From: an uncultured Chthonomonadaceae bacterium
GTDB taxonomy: Bacteria; Armatimonadota; Chthonomonadetes; Chthonomonadales; Chthonomonadaceae
NCBI GenBank assembly: GCA_963817895.1
Contig: CAWFQB010000009.1
Span: 64,001 to 128,000 of the forward strand
Direction: 5' to 3'
Length of the DNA: 64,000 bases
In this document: in pieces, positions 10,037-31,095 of the stretch
Layout: each line of letters opens with the position of its first letter
Numbering within the stretch: the stretch's first letter is position 1
Notes under the pieces: generated by a model
Seen by the model: the letters and a program-made list of their open reading frames with translations, nothing else
Databases searched by the model: none
What the model was told of the DNA's origin: nothing
Made by a program: the position numbers and the translations under genes

Positions 10037-10048
10037 AGAGGTACGCTC

Positions 10049-10441: not shown

Positions 10442-10458
10442 TCGGTAAGAAGGATTCT

Positions 10459-10794
10459 ATGGCAGCCAGCGAAAAACGGGTTCAGTTACAAATTGGAATC
10501 ATAGCCATTGTCTCTACACAAGATGACATGGATTGCGTTGAATTGTGTACCACGCCAGACGAACAGGAAGTGAGGGGTTTCAACACAAAGGGCTTTCTGT
10601 TGAAATATGGCTTGGAAGAGCATAAGGGCTTTCACCTTTTGCTCAAGCAACTCGAGGCGACTATCAGCTTGGGGATTGATCGTCAGACTTATTGCATGAA
10701 AACAGGTCAAACTGACGATTTCTTAAAAACGGTTGACCTGTTAATAGCCGACTATTTCTCTTATGCTTGTACTCGCGGCGATGCTTCATTCTGA
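10459..10794 (+). CDS. Hypothetical protein
   Basis: AAGGA RBS, operon spacing, 111 aa. Confidence 0.5.
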   Translation: MAASEKRVQLQIGIIAIVSTQDDMDCVELCTTPDEQEVRGFNTKGFLLKYGLEEHKGFHLLLKQLEATISLGIDRQTYCMKTGQTDDFLKTVDLLIADYFSYACTRGDASF

Positions 10795-10880
10795 CAATTC
10801 AAGATTGCCTGTTAGAGGTGAGTGGGCGTACCATTCAACAAATTTTTCTCATTCAGCAAGTCATTCTAAAGGCGAATGCT

Positions 10881-11717
10881 ATGCGGCCTATATGGATAAT
10901 TGAAGCGGGCGTGTTCGGGCAGAACGCGGAACGGCTACGGGCGGAAGTGGAGCGGCAGGGCATGGAATGCTGGTCGGTACGACAGTACGCGCTTGCCGAC
11001 GATTCGATGGCGTCCCTGCGCGGCGAACCGCTGGCGCCTGACGATTGCGTGATTTGCTACAGCACGTTTCCGTTTGCTCAAGATGTGGAGGCGCGAGGAT
11101 GGAAATCGGGAGCGTGGTGCAGTTTCGATAATCTGGCATGTTCGATGTACTACGCTTATTTTGGGCGTTATCTGCTCAATCAGCAGTATACGCTGCTTCC
11201 CAGCCTTGAGGCCATGCGGCAACGGGAGTTTCTGTATCAGACATTTGGACGGAACGGACAGGTGTTCGCGCGTCCCAACGGCGTGGAGAAACTGTTTACG
11301 GGGCGGTGTGTTGCCGAAGAAGATTTTGCGGTTGCGCTTGCCCCGGCCCGCTATAACCCGACAACACAGGTTGTGATCGCCGCGCCGCAAACTATTGGGC
11401 GCGAGTGGCGGCTGGTGGTTGCGGAACACGCCATTGTTGCGGCAAGTCAGTACATGGAGCAGGGAAAGTTTGCCGTCGCGCCCGGTTGTCCCAAAAGCGT
11501 CCGCGAATTTGTACAAAACATGCTCAACGAAGTTCAATGGCGTCCCGACCCGATATTTATGGTGGATGTATGCGAGTCGAACGGAAATCTATATCTGCTG
11601 GAATTGAACAGTTTCAGTTGTTCAGGATTGTATCAGTGCGACATGGCCGAAGTCGTTGCCGCAGCAAGCGACATAGCCCAACAAACGCGCGTATCGAACT
11701 TTGTAGCATCCGCGTAA
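10881..11717 (+). CDS. ATP-grasp domain protein (DUF4343/R2K-like)
   Basis: VFARP...KLFTG, REWRLVV, SQY, MVDVCES...LLELNSFSCSGLY. Confidence 0.8.
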   Translation: MRPIWIIEAGVFGQNAERLRAEVERQGMECWSVRQYALADDSMASLRGEPLAPDDCVICYSTFPFAQDVEARGWKSGAWCSFDNLACSMYYAYFGRYLLNQQYTLLPSLEAMRQREFLYQTFGRNGQVFARPNGVEKLFTGRCVAEEDFAVALAPARYNPTTQVVIAAPQTIGREWRLVVAEHAIVAASQYMEQGKFAVAPGCPKSVREFVQNMLNEVQWRPDPIFMVDVCESNGNLYLLELNSFSCSGLYQCDMAEVVAAASDIAQQTRVSNFVASA

Positions 11718-11836
11718 TCTATGGATTGTTCTTTGCCTTTCTTCTGCTTTCTTTGCGGTCTTTGCGCCTTTGCGGTTTGCATCTGAATGTTTTCGTCTTA
11801 TTTTGCTTCTTTCGCGGTTAATTCAGGGAGAACTAC

Positions 11837-13001
11837 ATGCCGGAATTTTCTTTAAGTACCGATAACTGGGATTTGCATCAGCGCGCGGAACGGGACCGCC
11901 AGCGCCACAACGACAAGGTGAAAGAGGTCATCAAGCAGAATCTTGGCGACATCATCAGCCAGCAGGACATCATCACGGCGGATCAGGGCAAGATCGTCAA
12001 AATTCCCGTGCGCGGCCTGGAACTGCCCCGCATCCGCTTCGACAACGACGAGCGCGAACGGGTCGGGCAGGGCGGCGGCGGTTCCAAACCCGGCGACATC
12101 ATTGCCCGCGCCCCTTCGGATGAGGAGGGACAGGGGACGGGCAAGCAGGCGGGACAGGAACCGGGGACAGACTTTTACGAGGCCGAACTGACGCTGGAAG
12201 AGCTGACCAGCCTTGTGTTTGAAGACCTGCACCTGCCCAATCTGGAAGAGCGCGGCGTCAAGCAGATCATGTCGGAACACGCCGACTTCAACAGCATCAG
12301 CAAGCGCGGCATCACCAGCAATCTGGATCGCAAGCGGACGCTGCTGGAAGCCTATAAGCGCAATGCCCGCGAGGGCAAACCCGGCTGGACGGTGAAGAAC
12401 GAGGACCGCCGCTATAAAACGTGGGAAGTGGTGACGGAGCCGCAGCGCAACGCGGTTATCTTCGCCATGCGCGACGTGTCCGGCTCGATGGGCGAATTTG
12501 AAGCGTATATCTGCCGCTCGTTCTACTTCTGGATGCTGCGCTTCCTGCGCAAAAAATATTCCAGCGCGGAAATCGTGTTCATTACCTGCCACACGGAAGC
12601 CAAAGAGGTGGATGAAAACGCCTTTTTCGGACTGGGCGATTCGGGCGGCACGAAAATGAGCGAGGCGTACAAGCTCGCCATGCGGATCATTGACAAGCGC
12701 TACAATCCGCGCGAGTGGAACATCTACCCGTTCCTGTTTTCCGACGGCTACAACTGGGGCGATCAGGAATGCGTGGAGCTGATGAGGAAAATGGTGGAAA
12801 TCTCCAACCTCATCGGGTACGGCGAAATCGCCAACGACATCTGGAGCCAGTCGCCCTCTTTCGCGCCGCTCGGACAGGCGTATGAGGAGGCGTTCGCCGA
12901 ACGAACCGCGCGTCTGCCTGGTCAAAATCAACAACAAGGAAGACGTCTGGCCCGCCCTGCAAAAGTTCTTCAGCAAGCACCCGGAATTGCAGACTGCGTA
13001 A
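11837..13001 (+). CDS. yeaH: YeaH/YhbH (DUF444) protein, frameshift near 12900
   Basis: AMRDVSGSMG, SGGT, WNIYPFLFSDGYNW; C-terminus ...INNKEDVWPALQKFF... lies in a shifted frame ending at TAA 13001. Confidence 0.9.
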
Positions 13002-13017
13002 GGAGACCGGTTCAGCC

Positions 13018-14471
13018 ATGAACCATAAAGACCGCGAGGAACTGGAAAAGTGGATTGACATTATCACGGAAAAGGCGGCGGAGTACGGGCTGGACTGCTA
13101 CCCGACGCACTTTGAAGTGGTTCCCGACCACGTTATCTACGAACTCGGCAGCTACAGCCTGCCCGCCCGCTTTTCGCACTGGACGTTCGGGCGCGATTAT
13201 CACCGCCAGAAGACCATGTACGATTACGGCATGGCGAAAATCTACGAGATCGTCTTCAATACCGATCCGTGCCAGGCGTTTCTGATGGACAGCAACAGCA
13301 TGCTGTCGCATAAGTTCGTCGTGGCGCATGTTTTGGGACACAACGACTTTTTCAAGAACAACAGTCTATTTCGAGCATACCGACCGGCGCATGATCGAAA
13401 AAGTCCGGCTGCACGGCAACCGTATCCGCAAGTACGAAGAAGAGTACGGCCCGATGGCAATCGAGGAGTTTCTGGATGAGGTAATCTCCATCGAGGAACA
13501 CTTCGATACCGGCCTGACAACCTCGTTCCGCCGCAAAACGCCCGAACAGCACGAAGCGGAACGCCTGAAGCCCTCCAAACCGACAACCGAATACGATGAC
13601 CTGTGGAACCTGTCCCAAACCCAGAGCGGGCCGGAGCAAACCGAAAGCGCGTAAGTTCCCGCCCGAACCCGACAAAGACCTGCTCGGTTTTTTGCGCGAC
13701 CACGCTCCCGAACTGGAAAAATGGCAGCGCGACATCCTCAACATGATCCGCGAGGAGATGATTTATTTCATCCCGCAAATGCGTACGAAGATAATTAACG
13801 AGGGTTGCGCCTCATTTTGGCATGAACGAATCATGACGAATCTGGATTTAACGCCGCAAGAGCATCTGGAATTTCGCCGCCTGCATGCGTCCGTGCTGTC
13901 GCCGGGTTCGCCCATGTCTATCAATCCGTACTATGTCGGCTATAACATTTTCCGCGACATCGAGCGGCGGTGGAATGGCGAAGAAGATAAAGAATTTCCT
14001 GAGAGCGACTGGCGGGGCGAGGAACTGCATCGTCCGAGCGGCGAAGGTATCAAGAAAATCTTTGAAGTGCGGCGGGATGAGGCCGACGTGACGTTCCTGC
14101 GCAAGTACCTGACGCAGGGATTGGTCAACAGGCTGGACATGTACACCTACAAGCAGGAAGAAGTGAACGGCGAAAACATGTGGGTGGTGCAGGAAACCGA
14201 CTGGCGCAAAGTGCGCGATACGCTTCTGGACGGCATGACCAACTTCGGTATTCCGGTCATTTATGTGGAGGACGCGGATTACAACCGGCATGGCGAATTG
14301 CTGCTGCGCCACGCTTATGACGGCAAACCCTTAGACCGGGATTACACCGCCCGCACCATGAAACACATCTTCAACATCTGGAAGCGGCCCGTACATTTGC
14401 AAACGGAATACGACGATGAAACGGTTTTGTTGTCGCACGATGGCGAGGATTTCACAGAAGAAATTCTTTAG
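13018..14471 (+). CDS. spoVR: SpoVR family protein (frameshifts near 13365 and 13620)
   Basis: LPARFSHWTFG, KIYEIV, AHVLGHNDFFKNN, TKIINEG-x-ASFWH, NPYYVG, GELLLRH. Confidence 0.9.
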
Positions 14472-14507
14472 GGTATAGCCCAAAATCAGGGAAAGCGATG
14501 TGGGAGG

Positions 14508-14533
14508 CAGCGTCGAAATATTGGCAATGCAGC
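14508..14533. repeat. 26-bp dispersed repeat, copy 2
   Basis: Identical to 1380-1405. Confidence 0.8.
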
Positions 14534-14589
14534 TTTGCCACTATTTCGGTTGGAGTAGCAAGCCCTGTGGCTCACGCCGCGAGTGTTAC

Positions 14590-14628
14590 GCCTGTCAGGA
14601 CAGCCGACTGTCCTGACAGGCTGTTTTG
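14590..14628. terminator. Terminator between convergent genes
   Basis: 14-bp stem GCCTGTCAGGACAG / CTGTCCTGACAGGC. Confidence 0.7.
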
Positions 14629-14632
14629 GTTT

Positions 14633-15832
14633 CTAGCGCAGCGGGTGGTGAATATTCGCTTTTCGCGGCGTGGGTTTCACGGGTATGGGCATGGTCAGCG
14701 CTTTGAGATGCTTTGCCAGCGCGGACGCAGTTGCCAACGGACTGCCGATGCCTTCACTGGCGGGACGCCCGTTTTCTGCCGGGTACAGGTATTTGCCCTG
14801 CTCCGCGCCCGTCTTCTCCGTCTCCACGACAAGGGGATGAGCGCGGGCATACGCATCCTGCCGCGTTCCCGTCACCTGCCACGATACTTCCATGCCCGCC
14901 TTGCCGCCCGCGATCTCGAACCGGTTGCTCCGCATCTTCTGCGCCACAAACAGAGCCGGAGCCGCTTCGCCGATGGCGGTCAGCTGGTAGTGGAAGCGGG
15001 TGTTTTCCGCCTCGAACCAGTCGGGCATCTGCACGGTCGCCCGTCCGTCGCTGTCGAGGATTGTGTCGCCCGTATACAGGTTGAGTTGTTCGCTGCTTTC
15101 GATGCAGCTATGCGTGAGGTACTTGTGGGCGGGATCGAGCGGATGATCTATCTTGAAGTTCTTGGAGCCTGCGCTGAGAGTGCCGATCACCTGCACATTG
15201 CCCTGAAAGTATCCGCCGAAGCCCCCTCTGGAAGCCGTCTCGCCATATACGCCGACGCGCCCGTACCCCGCCGTTCCGAAGCCCGCATTACAATGCCCTT
15301 CCATCCCGACCGCATTGTAAAACGCGTTGTTGTTGAAGAAGTAGCCGGTGGGACTGACGTTGGAGTCGCCGATGCCGATGATGGCTGCGCCGCCGTTCGT
15401 GTTGGTTCCATACAAGCCTGCCCCGCTGCTGCCCGCGCTCGTGGTTCCATACACGCCGATGCCGCTGACGGACGCGCCGTACACGCCCGAACCGCTGGAA
15501 CCATCCCCAAACCCGTACACGCCCGTTGTGGTCGCTCCCGCATTGGCATAGCCGTACACGCCCGAACCGCCCGTGCTGGTGGCGTACAAGCCCACGCTGG
15601 CCGGATCCATACTGGCGGTACTGGCGAACACGCCATCGCTGACGTTGCCCGTGGTGGCGTCATTGGAAAACGCCGCGACAGCGCTGTTGACCGCCTCCGC
15701 ATCTCCGGCATACGGCAGGCTAAACCCGGTAGACTGGCTGATGGCGGGCTGATACGCCACGACCACACTCAGCAACGCCACACTCCCCGCCCACCGCAGC
15801 GGCAGGGGGCATTTTCGTATCCATGTCTTCAT
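14633..15832 (-). CDS. Secreted Gly-rich (GVYG repeat) fibre-like protein with a C-terminal chaperone-like domain
   Basis: AAGGAG RBS, signal peptide, repeated GVYG, C-terminal KNFKIDHPLDP...LTH...ES...YQLTAIG. Confidence 0.75.
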   Translation of the reverse strand: MKTWIRKCPLPLRWAGSVALLSVVVAYQPAISQSTGFSLPYAGDAEAVNSAVAAFSNDATTGNVSDGVFASTASMDPASVGLYATSTGGSGVYGYANAGATTTGVYGFGDGSSGSGVYGASVSGIGVYGTTSAGSSGAGLYGTNTNGGAAIIGIGDSNVSPTGYFFNNNAFYNAVGMEGHCNAGFGTAGYGRVGVYGETASRGGFGGYFQGNVQVIGTLSAGSKNFKIDHPLDPAHKYLTHSCIESSEQLNLYTGDTILDSDGRATVQMPDWFEAENTRFHYQLTAIGEAAPALFVAQKMRSNRFEIAGGKAGMEVSWQVTGTRQDAYARAHPLVVETEKTGAEQGKYLYPAENGRPASEGIGSPLATASALAKHLKALTMPIPVKPTPRKANIHHPLR

Positions 15833-15935
15833 CGCGCACTCTCCTTTTGGCAACGGCAGTAGCAAAGTAACTCGTCTGCGATAGCAGAGTAACCCATCAG
15901 AAATCATTGCCCGCTCAGGCAACACCTCCTGAACA

Positions 15936-15969
15936 CAGTATAACCGATGTTTCGTTACTACAGCGTTAC
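15936..15969 (-). promoter_or_regulatory. GTAACG-repeat promoter, site A
   Basis: Minus strand GTAACGC-TGTA-GTAACGA-AACATCGGT-TATACT. Confidence 0.75.
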
Positions 15970-16008
15970 AGAATATCCGTCCAGCGCGGATACGGGTCGC
16001 GCGGTTTT

Positions 16009-16063
16009 GTAACGTAATTGATGCATTTGGTAACGCTGTAGTAACGGAACCTCGGTTATACTG
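16009..16063 (+). promoter_or_regulatory. GTAACG-repeat promoter, site B
   Basis: GTAACG at 16009, then GTAACGC-TGTA-GTAACGG-AACCTCGGT-TATACT. Confidence 0.75.
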
Positions 16064-16168
16064 TGCCTGACGCGGGAAGCGCGCCGAAGCGGAAGATTTG
16101 CCGCTTCCTGCGAACGCGCCCTGCGTCCCGATATGACAACAGATTATCCATATAAGGAGAACTCGATC

Positions 16169-18656
16169 ATGCGCGCCTTTTCTCGTATTCCCCTGCGCTC
16201 ACGCAGGCCTATTTCCCGTTGGCTCGTTTCCCTGTTGGGACTGCTGCTGTTCAGTCTGGCATGTGCCGCCTCACGAGCGAATACCTTCACCGTGACAACC
16301 CTCAACGACAGCGGCATGGGTTCGCTGCGGCAGGCGATTACCGATGCCAACGCCAATGCGGGAGCCGACAGCATTGTATTTGCCAGCGGGTTGACAGGAA
16401 CCATCGCGCTCACGTCTGCCCTGCCCAACCTGACGGATGATGTTACGCTGAACGGGCCGGGAGCCAAACTGCTGACGATTGCCCGCAGTTCGGCGTCGGG
16501 AACCCCGGCGTTCCGCATCTTCACCATTGACGCGGACACAGCTACGCCCCCGACAGTCAGTATCTCCGGCCTTACGTTGAGCAACGGCTTGATACAATAC
16601 ACAACAGGCGGCGAGAAATACTATGGTGGCGCGGTGCTGAGTAACAAAGCCAATGTGACGTTTACCGACTGCGCCCTCTCCGGCAACAGCATCTACTTGC
16701 CTTTCGCGCTTAATTATGGAACGAACCCTCCCGTTCCTCTCGGCTTCGGCGGCGGCGTCTACAACTATCAGGGAGCGATGACTCTGACGCGCTGCACAGT
16801 CAGCAACAATGTAGTCACCTCGTATGGCGGTCAGGCCAACGGCGGCGGCCTGTTCAACGATGCGGGAACGCTGACCCTGACCAACTGCACCCTCAGCGGC
16901 AATCAAGCCGTCAGTCAAGCTATCCTGATTCTAATACGCTGGTCATACCCCATGATTATGAACGGCAGCGCGTATGCTGGCGGTATCTGGAACGGCGGCG
17001 CGCTGACCCTGACCAACTGCACTTTCGCCGGTAACAGCGCTATCAACCACTGTTTGGGTTATGGCTGGGATGGATGGTTTTTTATTCCGTATGATACTGC
17101 GGGCAGCGGCAGTAGCGTGTACAATGCCGGCACAAGCGGCAGTACGCAAGTCACCCTCTACCAGACCATTCTGGCAAGCGGCAGCGCGGCAGGCGGCCAG
17201 AACGTTGTCAACGCGGCGGGCATCGTCCTCACCTCACTCGGCTACAACCTGAGCAATGACGCCACCGGCCCCAACGACGGCGCAACGGATCGTCTCAACA
17301 TGGATGCGAAACTCAGCCCGCTGAACTACTACGGCGGCCCAACGCCTACCTGCGTTCCGCTGTTGGGCAGTCCGGCTATTGACGCGGGCGACCTCAACTT
17401 CAATAACACTCCTCCCGCAACGGATCAGCGCGGCCAGCCTCGCGTTGTCAACGGACGGGTAGACATCGGCGCTGTGGAGCGTCAGGCAGGCGAGTTGGTT
17501 GCCCTCAACGATGCGTACTCCGTCAAGCATGACCATACGTCGCGAGTTGCCGCGTCCGGTGTGCTGACAAACGACACGGGAGTGGCTCCCCTGTCCGCCG
17601 TTCTCGTCGCGTCCGCCGCGCATGGCACCCTCCTGCTCAATGCCGACGGCTCGTTCGTGTACACGCCCAACGCCGGGTACGCATTAACCAGCAGCAGCAC
17701 AGACAGCTTCACCTACGCGGTACAGGACGGCATCGGCAGGACAAGCAACGTCGCCACTGTAACCATTACCATCATTGCCGACAATGCGCCTGTGTTGACC
17801 AACAGCCTGAGCGCCACCACAATGCCGGGGCAGGCGTGGAACTTCACGGCAACGGCAACGGACGCCGATCTGCCCGACGACGCGCTCACCTTTGCCCTTG
17901 TCAATGCCCCCTCCGGCATGACCATCAACGCGGCAACCGGCGCAATCGCGTGGACGCCACAGGCAGAAAACACAACAACGTTTAGCATCAAAGTCACGGA
18001 TCGTTATGGACTGAGCGCCCAGGCAGACGTTCACGCTCACCGTGTACGACAACCCGCCCGCGCTGACCAACAGCCTGAGCGCAACAGCAACGGCAGGGCA
18101 AGTCTGGAACCTCACGGCAACGGCAACGGACGCCGACCTGCCCAACGACGCGCTGACGTTTGCCCTTGTCAACGCCCCGGCTGGCATGACCATCAACGCG
18201 GCAACCGGCGTGATCGCGTGGACACACCGAACAGAAGGCGTGTTTACATTTGACATCAAGGTCACGGATCGGTTCGGCAAAAGCGACCAGAAGACGTTCA
18301 CGCTCACGGTACAAACCGACCCGAACGGCTCTGTCAGTCTAAGCATTACGAATGTCACGCTGCAACGCGGCGCGTACTACCCAAATACGGTGCTAGTCTT
18401 GTTCGATGTGGTCAACAACGGCACAGGGAGGGCGACAAACCTTGTCATTTCGCGCGCCACACTCGGCTCCGGGTTGTGCGTTCTCAACTCCACGCCGGTC
18501 AGTTTGGGGGCAGGAGGCAAGCAGACGTACGGGCTCACGTTCTTAGGGGTCGTGTGCCTGCCGAAAGTGGTATATCCGCTGCAAATACGCGGAACCTACC
18601 AGGCGCAGAATACCACGCAATCCCTGTTTTATGGCGGCGGCGTGATTGTGCCATAA
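16169..18656 (+). CDS. Secreted adhesin-like protein: beta-helix/choice-of-anchor Q, Ig-like and two putative Ig domains (frameshift near 18025)
   Basis: VTTLNDSGMGSLRQAI, GGPTPT...SPAIDAG...DQRG...DIGAVE, GTLLLNADGSFVYTP, duplicated ATDADLP...GMTINAATG domain. Confidence 0.85.
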
Positions 18657-18749
18657 TCGCTTGCAGGCTTTTACTGCCGGATTCGCGTCACCGCAGCAGG
18701 ACGCGACTCAGCGTTATCGTGACGAACATCGCGTCAATCTAAATTTTTA

Positions 18750-18783
18750 GTAACGCAACGGTAACGCAAATCCGGTTATACTA
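18750..18783 (+). promoter_or_regulatory. GTAACG-repeat promoter, site C
   Basis: GTAACGC-AACG-GTAACGC-AAATCCGGT-TATACT. Confidence 0.75.
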
Positions 18784-18913
18784 TGCTCACGGGGCAAGCG
18801 CGCAGAGTCCGGATGCTCTGCCGCTTCCCCTGTCTCCTGCTGGTTATGCCCGTCAACGATGTCAGGAACTATCAACTATCAACCCTCAACTCTCAACTTC
18901 GACAGGAAGCCGG

Positions 18914-21900
18914 ATGGACGACCGCTTTTATATCACCGGGGGTACGCTGCCCCTGGACGCCGATTCGTATGTGACCCGCCGCGCCGATACGGAACTCTTC
19001 GAGTATCTGCGGCGGGGCGAGTTTTGCTACGTTCTCAACACGCGGCAGGTGGGCAAATCCTCGCTCATGGTGCGCGTGGCCCAGGCGCTGCGAACCGAGG
19101 GCGTTCGCGTCGTCCTGCTGGACCCGACCGCGATTGGCGTAAACGTCACCGTCGAGGAGTGGTACGACGGCCTGCTTACCATCATTGCGGAGCAACTGAG
19201 TCTGCGGCGGGAACTGGAAGACTTCTGGCTGGAGCATCCCCGTTTGGGGCCGATGCAGCGGTGGATGCAGGCGCTGGAACATGTCGCGCTGGCAGGTTCG
19301 CCGGAACCCCTGTGCATCTTCGTGGACGAGATCGACTCGGTGCAAAGCCTGCCGTTTTCCGCCGATGAGTTTTTCGGAGGCATCCGCGAGTGTTATAATC
19401 GCCGCGCCTACAATCCGGCCTTCCGGCGTCTCACCTTCTGCCTGCTCGGAGTCGCCGCGCCCGTTGACCTGATCGCCGACCCGCGCATCACGCCGTTCAA
19501 TATCGGCAGGCGCATTGAACTAACGGACTTCACGCCGGACGAAGCCGCGCCACTCGCAAGCGGATTAAACCACGGGGAACACGGGGAACACGGGGGAGGA
19601 GAGGGGGAGAAAGGAAGGGGGGAACAAAATCCCTATTCATCCTTCATCCTTCATCCTTCATCCTTTGCTTCTCTTCTCAACCGTATACTTTATTGGACAG
19701 GTGGGCATCCGTATTTGACGCAGAAATTGTGCAGCGCGTTGGCGCAAAGAAACGGGGTTCCGACAAATGCCGACGTGGATGCGGTTTGTGAGGAACTGTT
19801 TTTGAGTTGGCGGGCGCAGAAGACGGACGACAATCTCGTTTTTGCCCGCAGCCGCCTGCTGTATGAGGAAGCCAATCGCGCCGCGCTGCTGGATATGTAT
19901 GTGGGTATTCTGGACGGGCGGAAAATTCGGGACGATGCCACCAATCCCCTCCACAGCGTTTTGCGTTTGTCCGGCATTGCGCAGGCCGAGAATGGACTGC
20001 TGACGGTTCGCAACCGAATCTATGCCCATGTGTTCAACAAGCAATGGGCGCGCGACAACATGCCGGGCGAGGAACTGCGGCGGCAAAAACGCGCCTATCG
20101 CCTGGGCGTCTTGCGGACGGCGTTCGTCGCCGCCCTGCTGCTGGCCGTGATTTCTGGTTTTGGCGCGCGAGCTTACTTTGCGGAGCAAAACGCGCGGACA
20201 TCCGCAAAGGCGGCACGAACCTCCGAAAAGGCTGCTCAGACGGCGCAAGAACTGGCGCAAAAGGAGGCAGAAAATTCCAATCGGCTGCTGTATGCTACCC
20301 ATATGAACCTGCTGCAGCGCGCGTATCAGGACGAGGACATTGGACGCGCCAGAGACCTGCTGGCGGAAACAGAGGCATCGCCCTATCGCGGCTTTGAATG
20401 GAACTACTGGAACCGCCTGCTCAAGCGCGAACGCCTTGCCCTTCCCATCGCGGAGCCACAAAGCCTGCTCGTCTGGTCACGAGACGGGCGCTGGATCGTG
20501 ACACAAACGCAGTCCACACAGAATACGCCCCACCTCTCCCTCTGGGACGCCTGGACGGGAAAGCATGTTCGAACGCTTGCGGGGCGCGCGGATACTTTGC
20601 TCGGCGTAGCCTCGCCCATTGCGGCCAACTGTGTCGCGCTCGTGGATGCGCCGCAGGGGAAAACGGGAACCGTCCGTCTGGTCAACCCCGCGACGGGCGA
20701 AACTCGGCATATTCTGCCTGTTCGCGCCGGGGGAGCGACGCTGTCCGAGGATGGCAGGCGCGTGTTTACGCTGGAACCGCAGTCGGACAACTGCACTCTG
20801 TTCAAGGCATGGGATGTGGAGCGCGGAACGCTGTTGCTAACCACGACGGTTAGCGGCGTACAGCTTTTTGGGGCGTGGACACAAACGCCCACGATCCAGT
20901 CCACCCGCGACTCGCGCCTGCTGTGTTTCGGCAGCGCGATAACGCGCGAGAACAGTCCTTTCACGTTGCTGAACACGCAGACCGGCGAACGTCAGTGGAC
21001 GCCGCCGGGAGCCTACAACCGTTACGCTCTTTCTCCCACCGGGCGCTTTCTCGTGGCAACAGAACAGGATGGCTTTGCGGCTGGCGCGTTTCAACTGTGG
21101 GACTTGCAGGCAAAGCGGCAGGTCGCCACCCTGCGGGGCAAACAAGCGAATGCGCCCGCCCTGCGCCCGCTTCCTACATGCTGTTCACGCTTGGTTTCTC
21201 CCCGAACGAACGCTGGATAGTGGGCGCGGGAGAGGATACGGCGTTCAACGGTTGCGTCTGGATTTGGGAGCGGGCGACGGGCAGGGAAAAGCGCGTCCTG
21301 ACCGGGCAGCGGCGAACGTGGGAAGCGAAGTTTTCTTCCGATGGCCGCGTGCTGTTTTCCGCTTCGAGAGACAACCGCCTATTCACCTGGAACACGGCAA
21401 CGTGGCAAAAAACCGGCGTGTATTCCAATGACGGCACGAATTCGCCTGTTCTGTCTCCCGATGGCAACGAGTTTCTGACGGTAGACCATCGCGGCGCTGT
21501 CCTACCCCCTGCAAGCCCGCCGGATGGCGGACAAACTTGAGATCGCTCCATCGCTCAAGGCGTCCGTTATAAGATACCAGGGTTTTCAGCGTGACGAGAG
21601 GCATTTGCGATTTCGTGGCGCAAATACGACCCGGGGACAACCGGCAGCACCGCATCTACGATATGCAAACAGGAATGCAGCATCTTCTGCCCTTTGATCA
21701 CACGGCGTCTGCCATTACTGTGGGAAACGACGCGTACGCCGCCGCCGCCAAAAATTTTGAAAAGGAAACATGGGTGGAAATACGGGACGGATTCTACAGG
21801 CAAGTTCATCCGTTTGCTGCATGACCCCCTGCTCTACTGGTGGATACGCGCCGACGGACCGTGGTGGGCGGCAATCCTCTACGAGGGCAAAATCAGCCCC

Positions 21901-22651
21901 ATGAGGGAAAGCGCGTTCGCCGGTCTTGGCAAGCATCATCCGCAGACGGTCTTGTGGAATGTCGAAACCGGAAAAGAGGTCGTTCGCCTTGCTCATCTGC
22001 GTTACACGCCCTGGCAGGTCTGGCCCAAATGCGGGACGCGCAAACTGATCCTCGTAGACACCGAGAATATTGCCCACTTTTGGAACGTCAGCCCCTTGCG
22101 GGAGACTCTTTCAGGTGCCAATGGGATCGGAAACACAGATAAAACTGGAAAATTTCAGCGTTTCGCCGGACGGCAAATACGTCAGCGTTCTCATCGCAGA
22201 AAACCATTTCGACGGGCGGATTGAAGTCCATGATTTCGAGACGGGCCAACTCTGCGCGCAAGATGAACACGCCTTTTATTATCAGCCGAGCAACGCCTTT
22301 TCGCCGGATGGAAAGGTTCGCGTCTGGGTGGACACGCAGCAGAACGCGCATCTCATGGAGGGGGCGACGGGCAAAGAAGTGGGGCTGTTGAAATCTATCG
22401 GCGGAGATTTTTCGTATCTGGCCTTTTCGCCGGATGGAGCGCGCATCGTTACGGGCACAACCGTCGGAACGCTCAAGCTGTGGGATGTCAGGACGGGAGC
22501 GGAACTGATGGTTGCCCGGTTGCCCGGCGAATTGGGTCCGTTGTCCTTTTCACCGGATGGAACGCATCTGGGAGTGAACGCCTGGACCAGCGGAAAAATA
22601 CGCGCGTTCGTCTGGGAGGCTCCCCTGCCTGCCGCCGTCAAGAGCCAGTGA
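18914..22651 (+). CDS. AAA_35 (AAA-like NTPase) - transmembrane helix - WD40 protein (several frameshifts 21170-22140)
   Basis: RQVGKSSL, IFVDEID, TPFNIG, WTGGHPYLTQ; TM VLRTAFVAALLLAVISGFG; RGFEWNYW; repeated FSPDG..LWD units spread over ORF fragments. Confidence 0.8.
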
Positions 22652-22718
22652 AGACTACAGCGGAGTTCCCGACAGCGCGTTCCGTTGCGCGTACAACAAC
22701 GCGCAGCCAGGTGGGAGC

Positions 22719-23571
22719 CTAATGCAAGTCCCAGAGATACTTGTCCCTGTCGGTAATGCTGCCTCTCCACCCGTCCTTCACATCGCAGCCTGCGGCCAGC
22801 GCGCTCATGGTCAGAGCTTTCACGTGCCCGTCGCAGAACGCGACTGTGGCAAACTCGCCATGCCAGGGCCAGACAGCGCCATAGACGTTTGGGGCCGTCC
22901 GGCTGGCCGGGGTTCCAGCCGCCAACCCATGTACGCCAGTTTTCGCTATAGGGAACATCGTCCGTCCAGCATGGCATATCCACTACCAGGGTGCCTCCGC
23001 CGTAAGGCGCGCCATCAACCTTCCTGAACCATCGGGAATCCACCGCGAGAACAGTTTGGGCAGACGAGGTGATCCTGGCGATTGGCGTCGGCCTGCTGGA
23101 ATACACATCCGCATCATCCAGTATGATAGGACTGAGATACTGAAAGTTGAAACCGAAGTTGGTCTTAATTCCCAGATTGAAGTCCCGCTGCTGCGGCGTC
23201 GTGGGCGGCGGTAAGTCGCTGGCAGCGCGCTGCTCCTCGCTGTCAGGATCAGAGGGACAGGAATACACCTGCCTGTTCTTGAGGTAATCGCGCAGGGCCT
23301 GCCACATGATCATAGTAGGTGGACTATCAAAGGAGACATAGCCGCTGGCATCTAACGGGCGGGGGCTGGTATACAAAAGCGGCATCAACTCGTCGTTGTC
23401 CTGCTGATACTGCATAATGGCGAACGCCTGCTGCTTGAAATTGGACGCGCACGTCGTCTGACGCGCTTTGTCGCGCGACTGGGCAAAGACAGGAAAAAGC
23501 AGGGCCGCCAGAATAGAGATAATGGCGATAACAACGAGCAGTTCGATCAAAGTAAAGGCGCGCGGCTGCAT
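22719..23571 (-). CDS. Prepilin-type N-terminal cleavage/methylation protein with H-X9-DG (DUF1559), frameshift near 22895
   Basis: [35 protein letters not shown]-terminal HGEFATVAFCDGHVK in the second frame. Confidence 0.85.
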
Positions 23572-23842
23572 AAATTATCCATTGAGGATGGTTCAGGCCA
23601 GCGTCAATGGATTACTCATTGGAACAAAGCGCACCTGTCCTCGTTTTTATTTCCTTTGTTTTTGCCCACTATTCTTAGTATACCTACCAACGCTCAATTC
23701 ACATTGCATCTTCACAGAAAATTTTTTGGAAAAGACAGAAAAACAGCCCGCGCATTTCCTCCGGTGTAAAGAACAAGTCGGTTCTTCTGTATACGCCTGT
23801 CCTGGAAATCAAAGTATATGCCGGCGTATAGAGGTTTCATTT

Positions 23843-24529
23843 TCACGGCCCAGGCAGGTACGTGATTTTGGAAAGGTTTTCCAGTCTTGTCCATTTGACA
23901 TGTGAGTTGAAGAATGCCATTTCGATGCCGCCGTTGTGACGGTTGATGCACAGCCTGCCCGAATCCAACTGACTAAATGGTCTTTCTACGCCAGAGGTAT
24001 TGCTACCGGTTTGCGTGTTGATGAAGCCGGGGCAGGCATTATTGCCATTGGGGATCCACGCGTCAATCCAGATGGCGTCGGCAAGGAGCATCGTTACGGA
24101 GGGTTGCGGCACCTGCGCGAGTGTGCAGACACCTTCCGGGCGCGCGCTACAATATAGCCAGCCGTTATAGGCGTAACTGCCGGAATAGCGAAAGCCATTC
24201 CATGCCTGCGACGCGCTCCCCATTTGTGGATCGTTGGAACGGGGTGGAGCATCAGGGCAAAGATGGACTTGCTTGTTTTTGATATAAGCCTCAAACGCGA
24301 CATTCCACAAATAGAGTTCGTTGATGACGCGATAATCCAGCAGTTGTTCGTCGTAGTCCTGCGAGTACATCGTTGCGCCGTAGGATAGTTGTTTGAGGTT
24401 GCTGGCGCAGCTAGTCTGCCTGGCTTTCTCGCGCGCTTGCGCAAAGACCGGGAACAAAATGGCTGCGAGTATCGCAATGATGGCGATGACGACGAGCAGT
24501 TCAATCAAGGTAAATCCGGCGCGTTTCAT
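23843..24529 (-). CDS. Prepilin-type N-terminal cleavage/methylation protein (DUF1559)
   Basis: [58 protein letters not shown]. Confidence 0.9.
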
Positions 24530-24656
24530 GACAATCCTCCTTTGCAAAGCAGGAATTGAAATACACAGCGGCGAACTGTGCGTTATACCGGGTTGAGGTC
24601 CGCAGAAATCATGCGACTTCTGCGGACCTCTCACTGTCAGCAAGAAAAGACAGCGT

Positions 24657-25670
24657 TTAGCAAGCCCGGACTTTGCGCGTTTTGCGGCGCAGAAAGCCCG
24701 CTCCCGCCACGCTCAGGCCGACAAGCAGGGCGACGCTGCCGGGTTCGGGAACGACCGTCACCATAAATGCGTGAACATATCCGTCCGCGCCGAGGTAGCT
24801 TCCCACAACCTGATTGCTTTCACTGACCCCGAATCCCATTAGAAGATTACGGTTATCGGGCGCATCAATCGGGGTAAAAACGCTGTTCTGGTAAAAGAAG
24901 GCATAGTCGCGATTGCCCAGAGTATATTCGCCGAGAACAAGGCCGCTGGAATTAACGCCGAAATAGGAGGGGTCCGCGCCGCCGGGTATATCGGGAATCT
25001 CGGAATATATCCCGCTGCTGGCGTTATAAATGGCCCCGTGCCGCGCGTTGTTCTGGTCGCGATAGTTGACAAGGACATCGCCATTGGGCGCGAAATTGCG
25101 AGCGACGGTGTTGTAGCCGAGAACCTTGCTGGGCAAATCGGTAAAGGTTTGCGTGGCGGGATCATAAACGGACGCGAAACCAAGATTGTTGGAGTCCTGC
25201 CATGCCACCGCGAATTTGCCATTGTCCCCAATGCCGTTGTAACTTGTGGAAATAGAATTCGGATGTTGCGGCAGCAGGCTTCTCACGCCGCCGCTTGTGT
25301 GCACAAAAGGCTCATCCGTTGTGAAGGTGCTGTTGAAGTACTCCCCGTAGTAGGCGCCGCTGCTGTTGACCGGCCCGATGTAATTGTAAAAGCCGGAAGC
25401 GGTTCTCGGATCATCATGTCGCGTATAAACGCCATTGGACAAAATGTAGCCGTGTTGGATGTCCGTCGAGTAAACATACTGGCTGAGGGAGATATTTGCG
25501 CCCGACGAACTGATGCCATTTCCGTAAATGTCGTTTGGATCGTTCGGATCGTGGAGAACATCAATGTTGGTGTAAGACAAAGACAACTGCGCGTCGGCGG
25601 GACGGGCGGCAAACAGGGCAAGCACCGACAGGGCGATCAGGCCGGCTTGCAGGAAACGAGTGCGAGGCAT
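24657..25670 (-). CDS. PEP-CTERM sorting domain protein
   Basis: Signal peptide; C-terminal [27 protein letters not shown]. Confidence 0.9.
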
Positions 25671-25749
25671 GGTGTTCTCCTTTTGATTTGGGTGTGCAGG
25701 TGTTCGGGTGTTCAGGTGTTCAGGCGGGACACTTTACTTTTCCCTGATG

Positions 25750-25803
25750 CAGTATAGGTAATTTTGCGTTACCGTTGCATTACTTGCGTTACCGTTGCGT
25801 TAC
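25750..25803 (-). promoter_or_regulatory. GTAACG-repeat promoter, site D (four repeats)
   Basis: Minus strand GTAACGC-AACG-GTAACGC-AA-GTAATGC-AACG-GTAACGC-AAAATTACC-TATACT. Confidence 0.75.
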
Positions 25804-25850
25804 CAATTCTGGTGTTTGTACTGGCAATCGTCTATTTTTGTTGTAAGGAA

Positions 25851-27509
25851 ATGCTTTTGGCTTCTACTGTTCTTACCTTACGCCTGTTTGGGAATTGGGA
25901 GGCGCGTCTTGGGAACGCGCCGATTGTGGGATTGCATCTGCGCGAAGGCGAGCGCCTGCTGGCATACCTGACCCTGCATCACGACGCGATTGTCTCGTAC
26001 AGGGAGTTGGCGCAACAGTTCTGGCCTGCCGAAGCCACCGTTCACCCGGAATGGGCAGGCGGCAGTTTCCCCTCCACGCGGCAGGCTATTTATGCCCTGC
26101 GCCGCGCCCTGGGCGAACACGCGCCCCGCCTTGTCAGCGTCGGAAAAGGCATGATCCGCTTTGATCTGGAAGGCGCGGATGTAGACTACGCCGCCTTTCA
26201 GGAATTGATCGCGCAGGATAACCGCGAAGCGTGGAGGCAAGCGCAGGCCCTGTATCGCGGCCCTTTGCTGGAAGGCTGGACAGAAAAATGGGCGCAGGAA
26301 GCCCGCGTTCGCTGCCAGCGTTCCTATGAGCGCATAGTCGCGGCTCTGGCGGCTGCGCCGATTGAGCGGGAAGAAAAGGAGAAAAGGAGAAAAGGAGAAG
26401 AGGAGAGGGAAGATACAAGATACAAGATACAAGATACAAGACCGAACACCGAACACCGAACGCCAACCACCAGCCACCAACCACCAACCACCCTCCTCGA
26501 ATCCAACGGCGGCGCGGTTCCGCTGGATTTGCCGTTTTACATTGCGCGGGAAACGGATGGAGGATTTCAGCAGGCGATCCAACGACGCGACAGCATCGTT
26601 CTGGTCAAGGGGACGCGGCAGATCGGCAAAACATCGCTTCTGGCGCGGGGATTGCAGGGGGCGAGACAGGATGGGGCGCGAGTGATATTCACGGATTTTT
26701 CCAGTTTGCCCTCCGAGTTGCTGACATCGCTGGACGCGCTGTATCGCATACTGGCGCAGGACATCGCCTATCAGTTGGATTTGGAGGCCGACCCGGAAGC
26801 GGATTGGAATACGCGCCGCAGTCCCAATCGTAATTTGGAGCGGTTTATCAGCGATATGGCGCTGCCGGAAGTCGGGGCGTCGCTGGTGTGGGGCATGGAT
26901 GAAGTGGATACGCTGTTCCAGTTTCCATTCGGAACCGAAGTCTTTCGCCTGTTCCGCTCGTGGCACAACCGCCGCGCCCTAGACCCGCGTGGCTCCTGGT
27001 CACGGCTCACGCTGGTAATGGCGTATGCGACGGAAGCGCATCTGTTCATTCAGGACGTCAATCAATCGCCCTTCAACGTGGGAACCCGTTTGGCGCTAGA
27101 GGACTTTACGTTCGCGCAGGTAACTGAACTCAACGTTCGCTATGGCAAGCCCCTGCCGGACGATGCTGCTGTACAGCGATTGTACGCGCTGCTCAACGGG
27201 CATCCGTACCTCACCCGCCGCGCCCTCTCGGAGATGCAGTCACGTCCTGTAACCATAGACACGCTGGAAGCGCAGGCGGGGCGCAACGAAGGCGTTTTCG
27301 GCGATCATCTGCGCCGCCTGTTCACGTCCCTCACTCAGAACTCGGAACTTACCGACGTGGTTCGCGGTTTCCTGACAGGACCGTTCTGCGCGTCCGAAGA
27401 CGCTTTTTACCGACTGCGCAGCGCGGGGCTGCTCGCGGGCGAAATGCCGGAAGAGTGCCATTGGCGCTGTCCCCTCTACGCCGCGTACTTCAAGCGATAT
27501 TTGAAGTGA
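25851..27509 (+). CDS. SARP-like (winged HTH/BTAD) transcriptional regulator fused to an AAA_35 NTPase
   Basis: LRLFG...LLAYL...LAQQFWP...LRRAL...VDY..F...ALYRGPLLEGW...W; then RQIGKTSL, MDEVD, SPFNVG, NGHPYLT. Confidence 0.85.
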   Translation: MLLASTVLTLRLFGNWEARLGNAPIVGLHLREGERLLAYLTLHHDAIVSYRELAQQFWPAEATVHPEWAGGSFPSTRQAIYALRRALGEHAPRLVSVGKGMIRFDLEGADVDYAAFQELIAQDNREAWRQAQALYRGPLLEGWTEKWAQEARVRCQRSYERIVAALAAAPIEREEKEKRRKGEEEREDTRYKIQDTRPNTEHRTPTTSHQPPTTLLESNGGAVPLDLPFYIARETDGGFQQAIQRRDSIVLVKGTRQIGKTSLLARGLQGARQDGARVIFTDFSSLPSELLTSLDALYRILAQDIAYQLDLEADPEADWNTRRSPNRNLERFISDMALPEVGASLVWGMDEVDTLFQFPFGTEVFRLFRSWHNRRALDPRGSWSRLTLVMAYATEAHLFIQDVNQSPFNVGTRLALEDFTFAQVTELNVRYGKPLPDDAAVQRLYALLNGHPYLTRRALSEMQSRPVTIDTLEAQAGRNEGVFGDHLRRLFTSLTQNSELTDVVRGFLTGPFCASEDAFYRLRSAGLLAGEMPEECHWRCPLYAAYFKRYLK

Positions 27510-27512
27510 ATT

Positions 27513-27666
27513 GTAACTATTCACCACCAAGACACGAAGAACACCAAGAAGAACGCGAGGAAAGCAATTGTGATATTGCAGGAGAAAACGAAATTGTCTC
27601 CGGCTCTGTGCCTTTTCGGTTGCTTTTTCTCTTGGTGTTCTTCGTGTCTTGGTGGTGAATAGTTAC
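27513..27666. repeat. Large palindromic element between convergent genes
   Basis: 36-bp perfect inverted repeat GTAACTATTCACCACCAAGACACGAAGAACACCAAG (27513-27548 / 27631-27666). Confidence 0.85.
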
Positions 27667-27668
27667 CG

Positions 27669-29655
27669 TTACTGCCTTTTCATAACTGAACGCCAGTTTT
27701 CGTCAAAGAAACCGGCGAGTTCCACATCTTTGGCTCGGTCGTCGTTGAAGGCAGCAGGGTCCATGCGGATAACGGCATAGTCGGGAAGGTGCGGGTATTG
27801 CAGGGCGTTGCTGCCGTTCCAGTCGGCGCGGCTGAAGGTGAAGCCGGTGTTCAGAACGACATAGCGTTTCGGATTTTCGGGGTTGGGGAAGATGAGCAGG
27901 GGCAGGTGGTCGCTTGCGGTGAAGGATTTCCCCGCTATGGTGATGGTATCTTTTGTCCATTTCAGCGGCAGCTTCGACAGCAGGCGGCGTAAAAAGCTGT
28001 TAGAACCCGGATCGCCAAATAAGTAGAGATTATGGTTGGCAATATCGGCTGCGCTCAGTTTCGTATCGGTCGTTTCCGGCAGTGTGGCGCGGCAATACAT
28101 CCCCCACCCCTCCCGAAAACGTTCCATTTCCTGTTTGCTCCACCCCTCCGCGCTCGCGTTCCATGCTGTTCCCGTTCCCGCCACCGCCAGAACCGGGCCG
28201 AACAGGGCGTCGTCTATCGGGACCGGACAGGCCGGGCGCTTTGCGCAGGCCCTTCGGTTCGCCCCATTTCCAATACGCGCCCGTTTTCATCAAATCAAGC
28301 GCGGCAAGCGTTGCTTTCGGAGTTTTCAGCGTTTCGCCGTCCACGACAACAACCCCGTTCGCTTTCCAGTCGGCGGGTGTCAAACGTAATGCGCTGACGT
28401 TGCGCGTGGTCACGTCCAGATGATCGGGCGCGGTTCGTTTCGCGTGGACTTCCGCCCGCTCCCAGTGCCGCTCCAAGCCCTCTAAATGTACCCATTTACA
28501 TTCCGGCCAGCGCAGGGTATACGTGACGAAATCCACATCGGGCGCGTCCGGTTCGCGGCGAACGGGCGCAAACGCGGCCAGCATGCTTTGCAGGGTGTGC
28601 TTCTCATAGGCATGGCCGGTTTTCGGGCCGAGGAAATCCTGATACGGCGCGTTCTCCTGCTTTAAGGCTTCATACATCAGCAGGTGCTGCGCGTGAAACG
28701 TGTCGGTTTCCCCCACATACGGCAGCAGTGGCAGGTTTTTGGCGTTCGCGGCGTAATCAATGGGATCGTACAGGCAGAGCAATCGCGTTTGCCAATCGGG
28801 CAGGGTTCGGGTGGTTTTGGTATAGCGGATGGTTTCCACAAACCCCGCGCCCGGACTCATCGCCGCCCACATACCGGGATGTTGTAGCCCGATATGCCAC
28901 GCGCCATGCCCGCCCATCGAAAAACCGCGCAACGCAACCCGGTTCTCATCAACCGGAAAACGCCTTTTGCAATCCGCGAGGGCCTCGAACACATCCTGCT
29001 CGCCCGCGAACCGCCAGCCGTTGTTGCCGCGCCCGTAGGGGTACAGCGCGAGGTTGGCGAGCGGTTCCGCGCCGAAATTACCCCTTACCCATCCCTTGCC
29101 GCCAATGAAACTCAGTTCGTTGAGATTGCCGCCCCTGCCGTGCAGAAATATGTCAAGCCGCATGGGTTTCGGCGCGGCAAAATCGTACCCGGCGGGAATA
29201 AACGCCTGATACGGCTGAACCGAGCCATCCACCTGCGAACGATAGCCAAGAACGACCACACCCGCCTGCCGCATCCAGGGCGCTTTGCCTTCACGCAGGG
29301 CCGCCAATCGGCTTTCTCCCTCGCTTAAACACGTTCTCGCCTGCGCCACGTTTTGTTTGGAAAAGAAAAGGTCTTGCCGCAGATTACGGTCAACAGCGTC
29401 CAGAAAAATCTCCACATTCGGCAGCATCTGTTTGGTAAGTTTGTCCGCCGCGCCCTTTTGCGCCCGCAAACTTGTTATGCCCTGCCGCAAATGGTCGCGC
29501 CCCTGCGCCAGTTCCTGCCGCTCCTCCGCCGTCAGCGTAACCCGCTCCTTTTGAAACTGCGCGTTCGCGGGCAACCCTGCCATTGTTCCCATTACGATGG
29601 CAAACACGGCTACTATTCTCAATGCGGGTTTGGTTCGCAACGTTTTCTCCTTCAA
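27669..29655 (-). CDS. Secreted alpha/beta hydrolase (esterase / S9-like), frameshift near 28220
   Basis: IFLHGRG, GFSMGG nucleophile elbow; C-terminal LYLFGDPGSN...FPNPENPKRYVV...LPDYAV. Confidence 0.8.
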
Positions 29656-29764: not shown

Positions 29765-31095
29765 CATAAGTGTCGAAAGCCCGCCTGCTTGCCTTATTTT
29801 GGCTAATCATCGGGTACAAATGGCGTTGCGCACAGCACCTGGCGCGTCCATACACGGCAGTCTTCGGCCAACCAGAACTTGACGGAACGCCAACCCCGAT
29901 CAATGCCCGTCTGCTGTTTGTACCAGATCAGCAGCAAGGCGGCAATCAGGCTCATATAGATCATGATGGTGATGCCGTTCTCGTTGCGACTGAGCAGGTG
30001 ACTATACGAGAGGTGTTGCTTGACAAACTTGAAGAACACCTCGATGTCCCAACGGGAACGGTACAGGGCCGGGATTTCAGCAAAAGTATACAGACCTGCG
30101 TGTTGCCCGTCCTCAGACACGGGCAAGTTGGTCATCAACACGAGCGGCAGCCACAGGTTGCGCCGTTTGTCAAAGCGCAGACCGTGTACCAGCACCAGCG
30201 GCATCCTGTCCCAACGCGCTTGTTCCTCCTGCGTTTCTTGATTGTTGCCAAACACCGCCTGCTGCACCTGTACCAGCACAAAGTCCGGTTCCTGCGCTTG
30301 GGGCGCTTGTGTGGGCAGACACTGTGGGGCGGCTTGCCACAGCGTTTGCACTTGCTGAAAGGCTTGTTGGCTGTGCGGCGTCAGCCAGAAACTGCCCGCC
30401 TGATGCAGCCGCGGCAAACGGGAGCGGTCATGGCAGCCTTTGTCGAATATCCAGAAATCGCCGGGTTGGGTATGCGCCAGCATGGTATTGCCCAGCGCCA
30501 CACAATCGCTCTTGTCGGACTTGGATTTGCACACCTTGAGTAACTGTGGCAGGCCCTCCTGGGAGAGTTCCACGACGCTCTTGACATGGCGCAGCGTCTT
30601 GTCAGGATTGGTCGTCTGATTGGACAAACCAAACGTCAGGAGCTTGGCCGACAGCGTGACCGTGGTGGCGTCAATGCGGCGCAAACGCAACGTCTGTGCC
30701 GTTGCCGGGGTGATCTTGGGAGACAACTTGGCGTACAGGTCGCCAAACAGGTCGCCAAAATAGGCCGGAGGCAACTTTGCCAGACACTTGCCCCAACTGC
30801 TATGGTCGCTACGACTGCTATGGTCGCTACGACAGCCCGTTTGCTGCTGATACGTTTCCTCCAGCACCCGCTGGCTCAACTCAGGATGGTTGAGCAGCCC
30901 ATTGAGCAGGCACAAGAATACGACGGGGCCGGGCAACCGTACATTAGGGTGTACATCTATTTCATAGTGACACGCCAGTTGTTCCAAGCGTGTCAGGGGT
31001 ACAAAGTCAAAGAGTTTTTTCAGAGCAATCATGCTCTGATTTTACAACCAACGGGGCGTACTCGCAAGTGAACGAGCGGGCTTTCGACACTTATG
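29765..31095 (-). mobile_element. IS4-family insertion sequence, 1331 bp
   Basis: 20-bp perfect TIR CATAAGTGTCGAAAGCCCGC; 10-bp TSD CAGCAAGCAG (29755-29764, 31096-31105). Confidence 0.9.
29803..31032 (-). CDS. IS4-family DDE transposase
   Basis: IDATT, IFDKG, LYRSRWDIEVFFKFVKQHL (Y-x2-R-x3-E-x6-K signature). Confidence 0.9.
   Translation of the reverse strand: MIALKKLFDFVPLTRLEQLACHYEIDVHPNVRLPGPVVFLCLLNGLLNHPELSQRVLEETYQQQTGCRSDHSSRSDHSSWGKCLAKLPPAYFGDLFGDLYAKLSPKITPATAQTLRLRRIDATTVTLSAKLLTFGLSNQTTNPDKTLRHVKSVVELSQEGLPQLLKVCKSKSDKSDCVALGNTMLAHTQPGDFWIFDKGCHDRSRLPRLHQAGSFWLTPHSQQAFQQVQTLWQAAPQCLPTQAPQAQEPDFVLVQVQQAVFGNNQETQEEQARWDRMPLVLVHGLRFDKRRNLWLPLVLMTNLPVSEDGQHAGLYTFAEIPALYRSRWDIEVFFKFVKQHLSYSHLLSRNENGITIMIYMSLIAALLLIWYKQQTGIDRGWRSVKFWLAEDCRVWTRQVLCATPFVPDD

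Follow-up and report, generated by a model that had tools for sequence, protein, structure and literature searches.

SARPs (Streptomyces antibiotic regulatory proteins) have been stated to be exclusive to actinomycetes (PMC7040171). The SARP domain of AfsR from Streptomyces coelicolor extends to residue 270 and holds seven BTAD helices; residues L211, E213, L243, E246, L247, V249 and R252 hold sigma region 4 (sigma4), while R240, D245, E246, D250 and L263 hold the C-terminal domain of the RNA polymerase alpha subunit (alphaCTD), and both sets are reported to be needed for activation (PMC10936776). SARP operators are defined as direct repeats with an 11- or 22-bp period (PMC10936776), heptamer repeats are listed as the norm for the sites (PMC10972967), and the afsS promoter reads GTTCAG-N5-GTTTAT-N10-CACTGT (PMC11301090, supplement). 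Here we describe four promoters and a neighbouring regulator gene in a 64,000-nucleotide stretch of DNA (the window, C9:64001-128000) of an uncultured Chthonomonadaceae bacterium of the Armatimonadota. The regulator is a SARP-type protein joined to an AAA_35 ATPase, and we put the probability that it binds the four sites and activates their genes, as predicted, at about 0.72. The motif and its spacing, the lack of a -35, the SARP fold with its short BTAD and the co-occurrence of box and regulator were computed here; binding and the mode of recruitment are argued by analogy.

Like AfsR (PMC10936776, PMC11301090), the regulator has an OmpR-type head followed by BTAD helices and, behind the head, a STAND-type ATPase, and like the afs box the sites have two direct repeats of 11-bp period, an equal gap to the -10 box and a poor -35. 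The BTAD, however, goes no further than the position of AfsR residue 196 (of 270), AAA_35 takes the place of NB-ARC as the ATPase, there is no TPR sensor in the same chain, the half-site is GT(A/C)ACG instead of GTT(C/T)AT, and the predicted regulon consists of surface proteins and a membrane sensor in a host from the Armatimonadota. EmbR of Mycobacterium tuberculosis (SARP-FHA; PDB 2FEZ, 2FF4) is the top structural match of the head, but its BTAD is complete and it carries an FHA domain, which the regulator does not have. The OmpR/PhoB response regulators share the winged-helix fold and the side-by-side binding on direct repeats; unlike them, the regulator has no receiver domain and does have BTAD helices, and there is no OmpR-family gene on the contig of the window. 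A last likeness is to the Npun2340/2341 pairs, in which two related STAND-like ATPases are neighbours and carry, respectively, an output domain at the N-terminus and repeats at the C-terminus, an arrangement seen here at 60 of 79 loci. The difference is that the output here is a DNA-binding head with a defined candidate operator, and that the sensor and regulator genes of the window are 7 kb apart. We take AAA_35 to be the STAND family of Npun2340/2341. That family (MNS clade) is named in PMC8195603. The available sections of PMC11119718 and PMC13581612 hold nothing on a SARP-AAA_35 system, and literature searches for SARP regulators in Armatimonadetes and for AAA-like/STAND-WD40-TIR proteins of cyanobacteria found no paper, and others turned up nothing about such a system, most subscription journals being outside the search.

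The four sites

15937-15969 (-): site A, GTAACG-N5-GTAACG-N10-TATACT, -10 at 15937-15942, faces gene A
16009-16062 (+): site B, TATACT at 16057-16062 preceded by half-sites at 16030 and 16041, with GTAACG once more at 16009 (48 nt before the -10), faces gene B
18719-18782 (+): site C, TATACT at 18777-18782 preceded by half-sites at 18750 and 18761, with a further GTGACG at 18719 (58 nt before the -10), faces the sensor gene
25751-25803 (-): site D, four half-sites, one of them GTAATG, TATACT at 25751-25756, faces the PEP-CTERM gene at 25670
15861-15893 (+): AGCA(A/G)AGTAAC pair of 22-bp period, reading GTAACT/GTAACC, antisense within the leader of gene A

All four sites carry GTAACG-N5-GTAACG-N10-TATACT. 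The pattern given in an earlier note on this DNA, GTAACG repeats at a fixed distance from TATACT, is found with no mismatch at 15937-15969(-), 16030-16062(+), 18750-18782(+) and 25751-25783(-), which keeps its four locations and trims their ends, drawn 1 nt too wide; 100 dinucleotide shuffles gave no match, even allowing two mismatches. The genome-wide scan that the note had named beforehand as a check was run on the whole assembly (7.48 Mb, 81% complete), as were all genome-wide scans below, and found, at up to two mismatches, the four window sites and one GTCACG site adjoining a paralogous regulator. Exact GTAACG-N5-GTAACG pairs occur four times in the genome, against 0.4 expected, all inside one 10 kb here, and one of them is the upstream pair of site D. 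When the box was relaxed to GTNACG, 11 matches in the genome had a 10-nt gap to the -10, as compared to 0-4 at every other gap from 6 to 15.

The absence of a recognisable -35 box, also claimed before, is borne out: the best match to TTGACA at 15-20 nt was 0-3 of 6 positions, and none of the four sites was among the predictions of a sigma70 consensus scan. Each site points at a gene, as had been said, with a start and a ribosome-binding site (RBS) 80-131 nt downstream. The 11-bp pair at all four sites is the direct repeat of a SARP operator, and the SARP arrangement, a 3' repeat 8 bp from the -10 and over the position of a poor -35, was found as well. The spacing from hexamer through N10 to the -10 is that of afsS within 1 nt depending on register (identical, or different by 1 nt when the TCA cores are put in line), in agreement with the SARP-type geometry proposed earlier. 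The DNA sites show every feature of a SARP operator that is testable by sequence. The protein lacks one defining SARP feature, the complete BTAD, and also the AfsR architecture of NB-ARC plus TPR.

Further half-sites lie upstream of the pairs. Across 34 promoters, of which 4 are the window's and 6 come from loci chosen by motif, there were 45 further exact half-sites, not counting two that had served in the selection. Of these 45, 38 were 36-38, 46-48, 58-59 or 67-69 nt before the -10, in distance bins chosen after the data had been seen. These positions are on one face of the helix, and the phasing would fit binding by more than a dimer.

At site D the four repeats and the end of the array 47 nt before the ATG at 25851 are as the earlier note had them, but the periods are 11, 9 and 11 and not uniformly 11 bp. 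The -10 of site D points away from the regulator, and none of the boxes in the window is directed at it; the autoregulation that the note had suggested is therefore unsupported in its positive form. As the array reaches to 47 nt before the start, occlusion is conceivable, and array D may possibly repress the regulator's own promoter by overlap.

The 22-bp-period pair at 15861-15893 had been presented as related to the motif. It is present, but it has no ACG end and no TAnnnT 10 nt downstream, and as 169 of 3000 random 100-nt windows of the genome contain such a repeat, its presence does not assign it to the motif. We rejected it as part of the operator, to which it is probably unrelated.

The regulator

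25851-27509 (+): regulator, 552 aa; OmpR-type winged helix and the first three BTAD helices, linker, AAA_35

As a start codon of the regulator, the TTG at 25857 is better placed relative to the RBS than the ATG at 25851. Residues 6-175 align to residues 23-196 of AfsR, that is to the winged helix and three BTAD helices. The model of this head (pLDDT 90.7) best matches EmbR (Z 15.8, 162 residues) and AfsR (Z 14.9), over about 160 residues, as compared to Z up to 10.4 for OmpR-family domains. It also aligns to the head of PhoB, and the winged-helix DNA-binding domain expected of a SARP is therefore present. A single-sequence search of the head against PDB sequences gave no match, so a profile was needed; built from 20 homologous heads, it matched, among the PDB sequences, only AfsR (E 3.9e-4) and EmbR (E 1.5e-3).

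Instead of the complete seven-helix BTAD there are three helices (residues 112-168), and AAA_35 begins about 45 residues after the third, behind a linker of low confidence in the structure model. The regulator is without BTAD helices 4-7, which hold the sigma4 and alphaCTD contacts of AfsR. The AfsR contacts of the head to sigma4 and of helix 6 to the beta flap (PMC11301090) map to parts that are retained. The short BTAD was found in 25 of 48 scorable homologues (57 were found, 9 were not scorable and 2 borderline cases were left out), and none of the 25 has a precomputed BTAD match; a form shared this widely is not an assembly artefact. The homologues are labelled Chthonomonadales and Capsulimonas, labels that point to a host from the Armatimonadota. 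A metagenome scan with the head gave one weak, short match, which was not used as support.

Residues 221-548 are AAA_35 (Pfam, E 1e-73), extending to the C-terminus. Walker A and B are intact (GTRQIGKT and MDEVD) and there is a GHPY motif, all of them conserved in the homologue alignment; with a P-loop, a GxP motif and helical domains the protein has the sequence features of a STAND NTPase. The AAA_35 model matches archaeal STAND-like ATPases and CED-4, but since ORC/Cdc6 match too, the fold alone leaves the ATPase clade unfixed. Pfam gave no NB-ARC and no TPR in the regulator, which sets it apart from the AfsR-type large SARPs. Nor does it belong to a two-component system by its neighbourhood, the 13 scanned open reading frames (ORFs) of 13.6-29.7 kb holding neither a receiver nor a kinase domain.

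Box and regulator across loci

Three SARP-AAA_35 loci of the genome carry seven perfect boxes and site D: the window (GTAACG), C5:510920 and C10:71274 (both GTCACG). The genome has 31 SARP-like genes, and the three with a box rank at the top against the head profile, a ranking partly by construction as the profile included these proteins. A sequence-blind scan of the genome (hexamer-N5-same hexamer-N10-TATA(A/C)T) gave 12 matches, 8 of them within 10 kb of the SARP-like genes, a neighbourhood that makes up 8% of the genome; three of the 8 belong to the window, and one has an OmpR gene as a neighbour too.

The link holds in other genomes. Loci chosen by protein homology had a box, mostly GTCACG, in 15 of 22 cases, against one weak match at 77 AAA_35 loci without a SARP head (1.24 Mb), under a rule allowing 21-22-bp periods that was added after L163 and L164 had been seen. 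This contrast makes the box the likely operator of the regulator. Together with the geometry and the SARP-fold neighbour it sustains the earlier idea that the sites define the regulon of the adjacent regulator, the autoregulation part excepted. Boxes were present at 5 of 9 short-BTAD loci, and the usual layout has the box divergent from the regulator start. Strict matches at L174, L176 and L177 adjoin SARPs without AAA_35, which makes GTCACG a wider SARP box of the Armatimonadota. At one of them, L174:8262(-) in G001, the GTCACG box is divergent from a large SARP and faces a gene with a nicotinamidase/isochorismatase-like N-terminus. At L163, L164, L165 and L166 the regulators are SARP-BTAD-TIR-AAA_35 proteins of about 770 aa, with repeats of 21-bp period and a second array upstream of their own promoter.

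The letter at base 3 of the proximal half-site varies with the head. Tyr or Phe four residues past the conserved Arg of the recognition helix (eight loci, including Y81 of the window) goes with A, G or T, and Arg, His, Ser or Ala at the same position goes with C, L203 being the one exception. On a tree of 28 heads, from which L173 was omitted as truncated, the aromatic state requires five changes, at least three of them forced by supported branches. We hypothesise from these sequences that Tyr81 shifts the preferred base from C to A and insulates the regulon of the window from the genome's two GTCACG paralogues.

Target genes and the predicted sensor

14633-15832 (-): gene A, 399 aa, glycine-rich with a hydrophobic N-terminus, predicted exported, no Pfam or NCBIfam match
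16169-18656 (+): gene B, predicted exported choice-of-anchor-Q / beta-helix / Ig-repeat protein, tail in another frame after about 18040
18914-22350, end beyond 22350 (+): predicted membrane sensor, AAA_35 (residues 10 to at least 216), hydrophobic helix at about 397-415 after a basic patch, WD40 repeats
24657-25670 (-): gene D, 337 aa, PEP-CTERM (TIGR02595 above cut-off), signal-peptide-like N-terminus
23843-24529 (-): DUF1559 prepilin-type protein, immediately downstream of gene D

The DUF1559 gene would be co-transcribed with gene D, judging by its position. Besides the truncated BTAD, it is the AAA_35-transmembrane-WD40 partner among the targets that goes beyond the earlier note. The reading frame of this sensor is split by frameshifts in the window assembly, in which several other genes here are also frameshifted. 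A 4456-nt contig of a close strain, which differs at 125 other letters, has indels relative to the window at 21154, 21489, 21611, 21795, 22108, 22899 and 24218, and the first five coincide with changes of frame in the WD40-like translation. The breaks are therefore likely errors of the window assembly, as judged from this one comparison contig and a depth of 2.7. A box precedes the sensor gene at eight loci (the window, C10, L171, L172, L173, L201, L203 and L204). Complex prediction for the AAA_35 domains of sensor and regulator gave a score of 0.28 against a mark of 0.32, and was counted neither way.

The leaders after sites B (16064-16125) and C (18783-18835) have a strong common hairpin and similar ends, GG(G/A)(C/A)AGCGCG ... 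CCGCTTCC. Rfam gave no match over 14000-28000 at E up to 1, and folding of 28 promoters showed no leader structure common to them.

Alternative explanations

Several observations weigh against activation by the adjacent regulator through these sites. The AfsR helices that hold sigma4 and alphaCTD have no counterpart in the protein, so activation is not guaranteed. Pfam scores of the head are under the cut-offs, Trans_reg_C with 18.9 bits against 26.2 and BTAD with a match to positions 25-78 of 146 only. Seven of the 22 homologous loci have no strict box: L165 and L166 carry a (C/T)TGACG variant with a 21-bp period and the same 10-nt gap, L168 and L170 score 10 of 12, and no box was found at L167, L202 and L206, several of the missed loci being on short contigs. 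There was also none at four more divergent SARP-AAA_35 genes (L039, L064, C1:698551, C5:152488), and most of the 77 control loci belong to other phyla. A scan of 60 relatives with the strict pattern returned 24 matches, as against 6 for a reversed control pattern; a SARP or AAA_35 gene lies within 1.5 kb of 10 of the 24 and at 2.4 kb from one more, and 13 have none within 1.5 kb and no known link. As to the link between residue and base, all three independent pairs agree, which gives a sign-test p of 0.25 with labels set by the analyst, and the AfsR residue equivalent to Y81, S91, contacts phosphate and not a base.

The same protein on the same operator could be a repressor, a truncated SARP that, until it is removed by the sensor, blocks the -35 region or competes with a paralogue of full length. 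The missing helices 4-7, with the sigma4 pocket and the alphaCTD surface, speak for this, as does the paralogue with a full BTAD and a similar box at C10, and such positions are usually occupied by repressors (PMC11301090). The promoters, however, have no -35 to protect, the 10-nt spacing, which activators require and repressors do not, is constant in short-BTAD and full-BTAD loci, and the head-to-sigma4 and helix-6-to-beta-flap contacts are retained, all of which makes repression unlikely. It is more improbable still that the box is read by another winged-helix protein, either a paralogous SARP-AAA_35 or a response regulator of OmpR/PhoB type with its gene at another place. Repeats of 11 bp are bound by OmpR/PhoB proteins too, and the genome has seven OmpR-family regulators. 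The promoters of two close SARP paralogues have occasional GTAACG half-sites, and PhoP shares the site of AfsR (PMC10972967). Against such a reader, GTAACG pairs are confined to this locus in the genome, none of the seven OmpR-family genes is on a contig that bears a box (C9, C5 and C10), and the box tracks the SARP head across genomes.

We give very little credit to an alternative sigma-factor promoter, or to the idea that the sites are left over from local duplication of a promoter and are not under selection. The divergent sites A and B are near-identical even in their spacers, and one 5-nt spacer is common to C and D, which makes recent copying inside the locus likely. Across genomes, however, half-sites, 11-bp period and 10-nt gap stay constant while the letters of the spacers vary, the -10 is a standard TAnnnT, and there is no sigma factor among the 13 scanned ORFs.

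Proposed mechanism

Activation by the adjacent SARP-AAA_35 protein is thus the reading that we prefer. The regulator is predicted to bind the GTAACG repeats where a -35 would sit and to activate otherwise weak sigma70 promoters, and its predicted regulon would be three exported proteins (A, B and D) and the membrane AAA_35-WD40 sensor. By analogy with AfsR, two winged-helix heads would occupy the 11-bp pair next to each other, taking the place of sigma4 at the -35, and recruit RNA polymerase. With helices 4-7 missing, recruitment would rest on contacts of the heads with sigma4 and the beta flap. It is conceivable that ATP-dependent oligomerisation of AAA_35 over the phased upstream half-sites compensates for the short BTAD. 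The membrane sensor may be the input, switching the regulator via its own AAA_35, since genes of the regulator and sensor types are adjacent at most loci (60 of 79), and the box at the sensor gene would then create a positive feedback loop. The scheme as a whole is tentative and we consider it rather doubtful: a half-BTAD SARP activator that has lost the sigma4 pocket and alphaCTD surface of AfsR, is compensated by AAA_35 oligomerisation along phased half-sites and is triggered by an AAA_35-WD40 receptor in the membrane, the gene of which it also activates, with a recognition-helix residue (Tyr/Phe or Arg/His/Ser/Ala) that sets base 3 and separates paralogous circuits.

Other observations

A second box, GTAGGAG-TTTT-GTAGGAG followed after 9 nt by TATA(A/C)T, has three copies in G000 (C5:644710, C3:143436 and C6:348477). 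One is 43 nt from a SARP gene (C5:644667) and the other two are far from any, an arrangement which suggests that these boxes may form a dispersed SARP regulon. Also in G000, a GTTCGG pair with a -10 at a 10-nt gap (C14:400052) and a GTCACG pair with a -10 at a 9-nt gap (C4:748821) are each divergent from a SARP gene. In the window, 7100-14471 holds a SpoVR gene (Pfam) and two others, interspersed with unrelated genes and frameshifts; from their translations we take them to be a PrkA-like ATPase and a YeaH-like protein. The 409-aa ORF at 29803-31032(-) is presumably an IS4-family transposase. Short tandem heptamer/octamer runs are found in the linkers of the regulator (26370-26465) and the sensor (19590-19670) and in leaders (18860-18900, 25690-25730); read depth over them is very high, which marks them as dispersed repeats, translated in frame.

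Significance

With this locus, a SARP-type protein of the Armatimonadota has a defined candidate operator and regulon, SARP operators having so far been described from actinomycetes. The output of a widespread and uncharacterised AAA_35 ATPase pair would become measurable via one reporter promoter, and the regulator offers a naturally occurring deletion with which to ask which surfaces of the BTAD are required for activation. If the one-residue specificity code is true, it would allow the prediction of regulons for the genome's 31 SARP-like genes.

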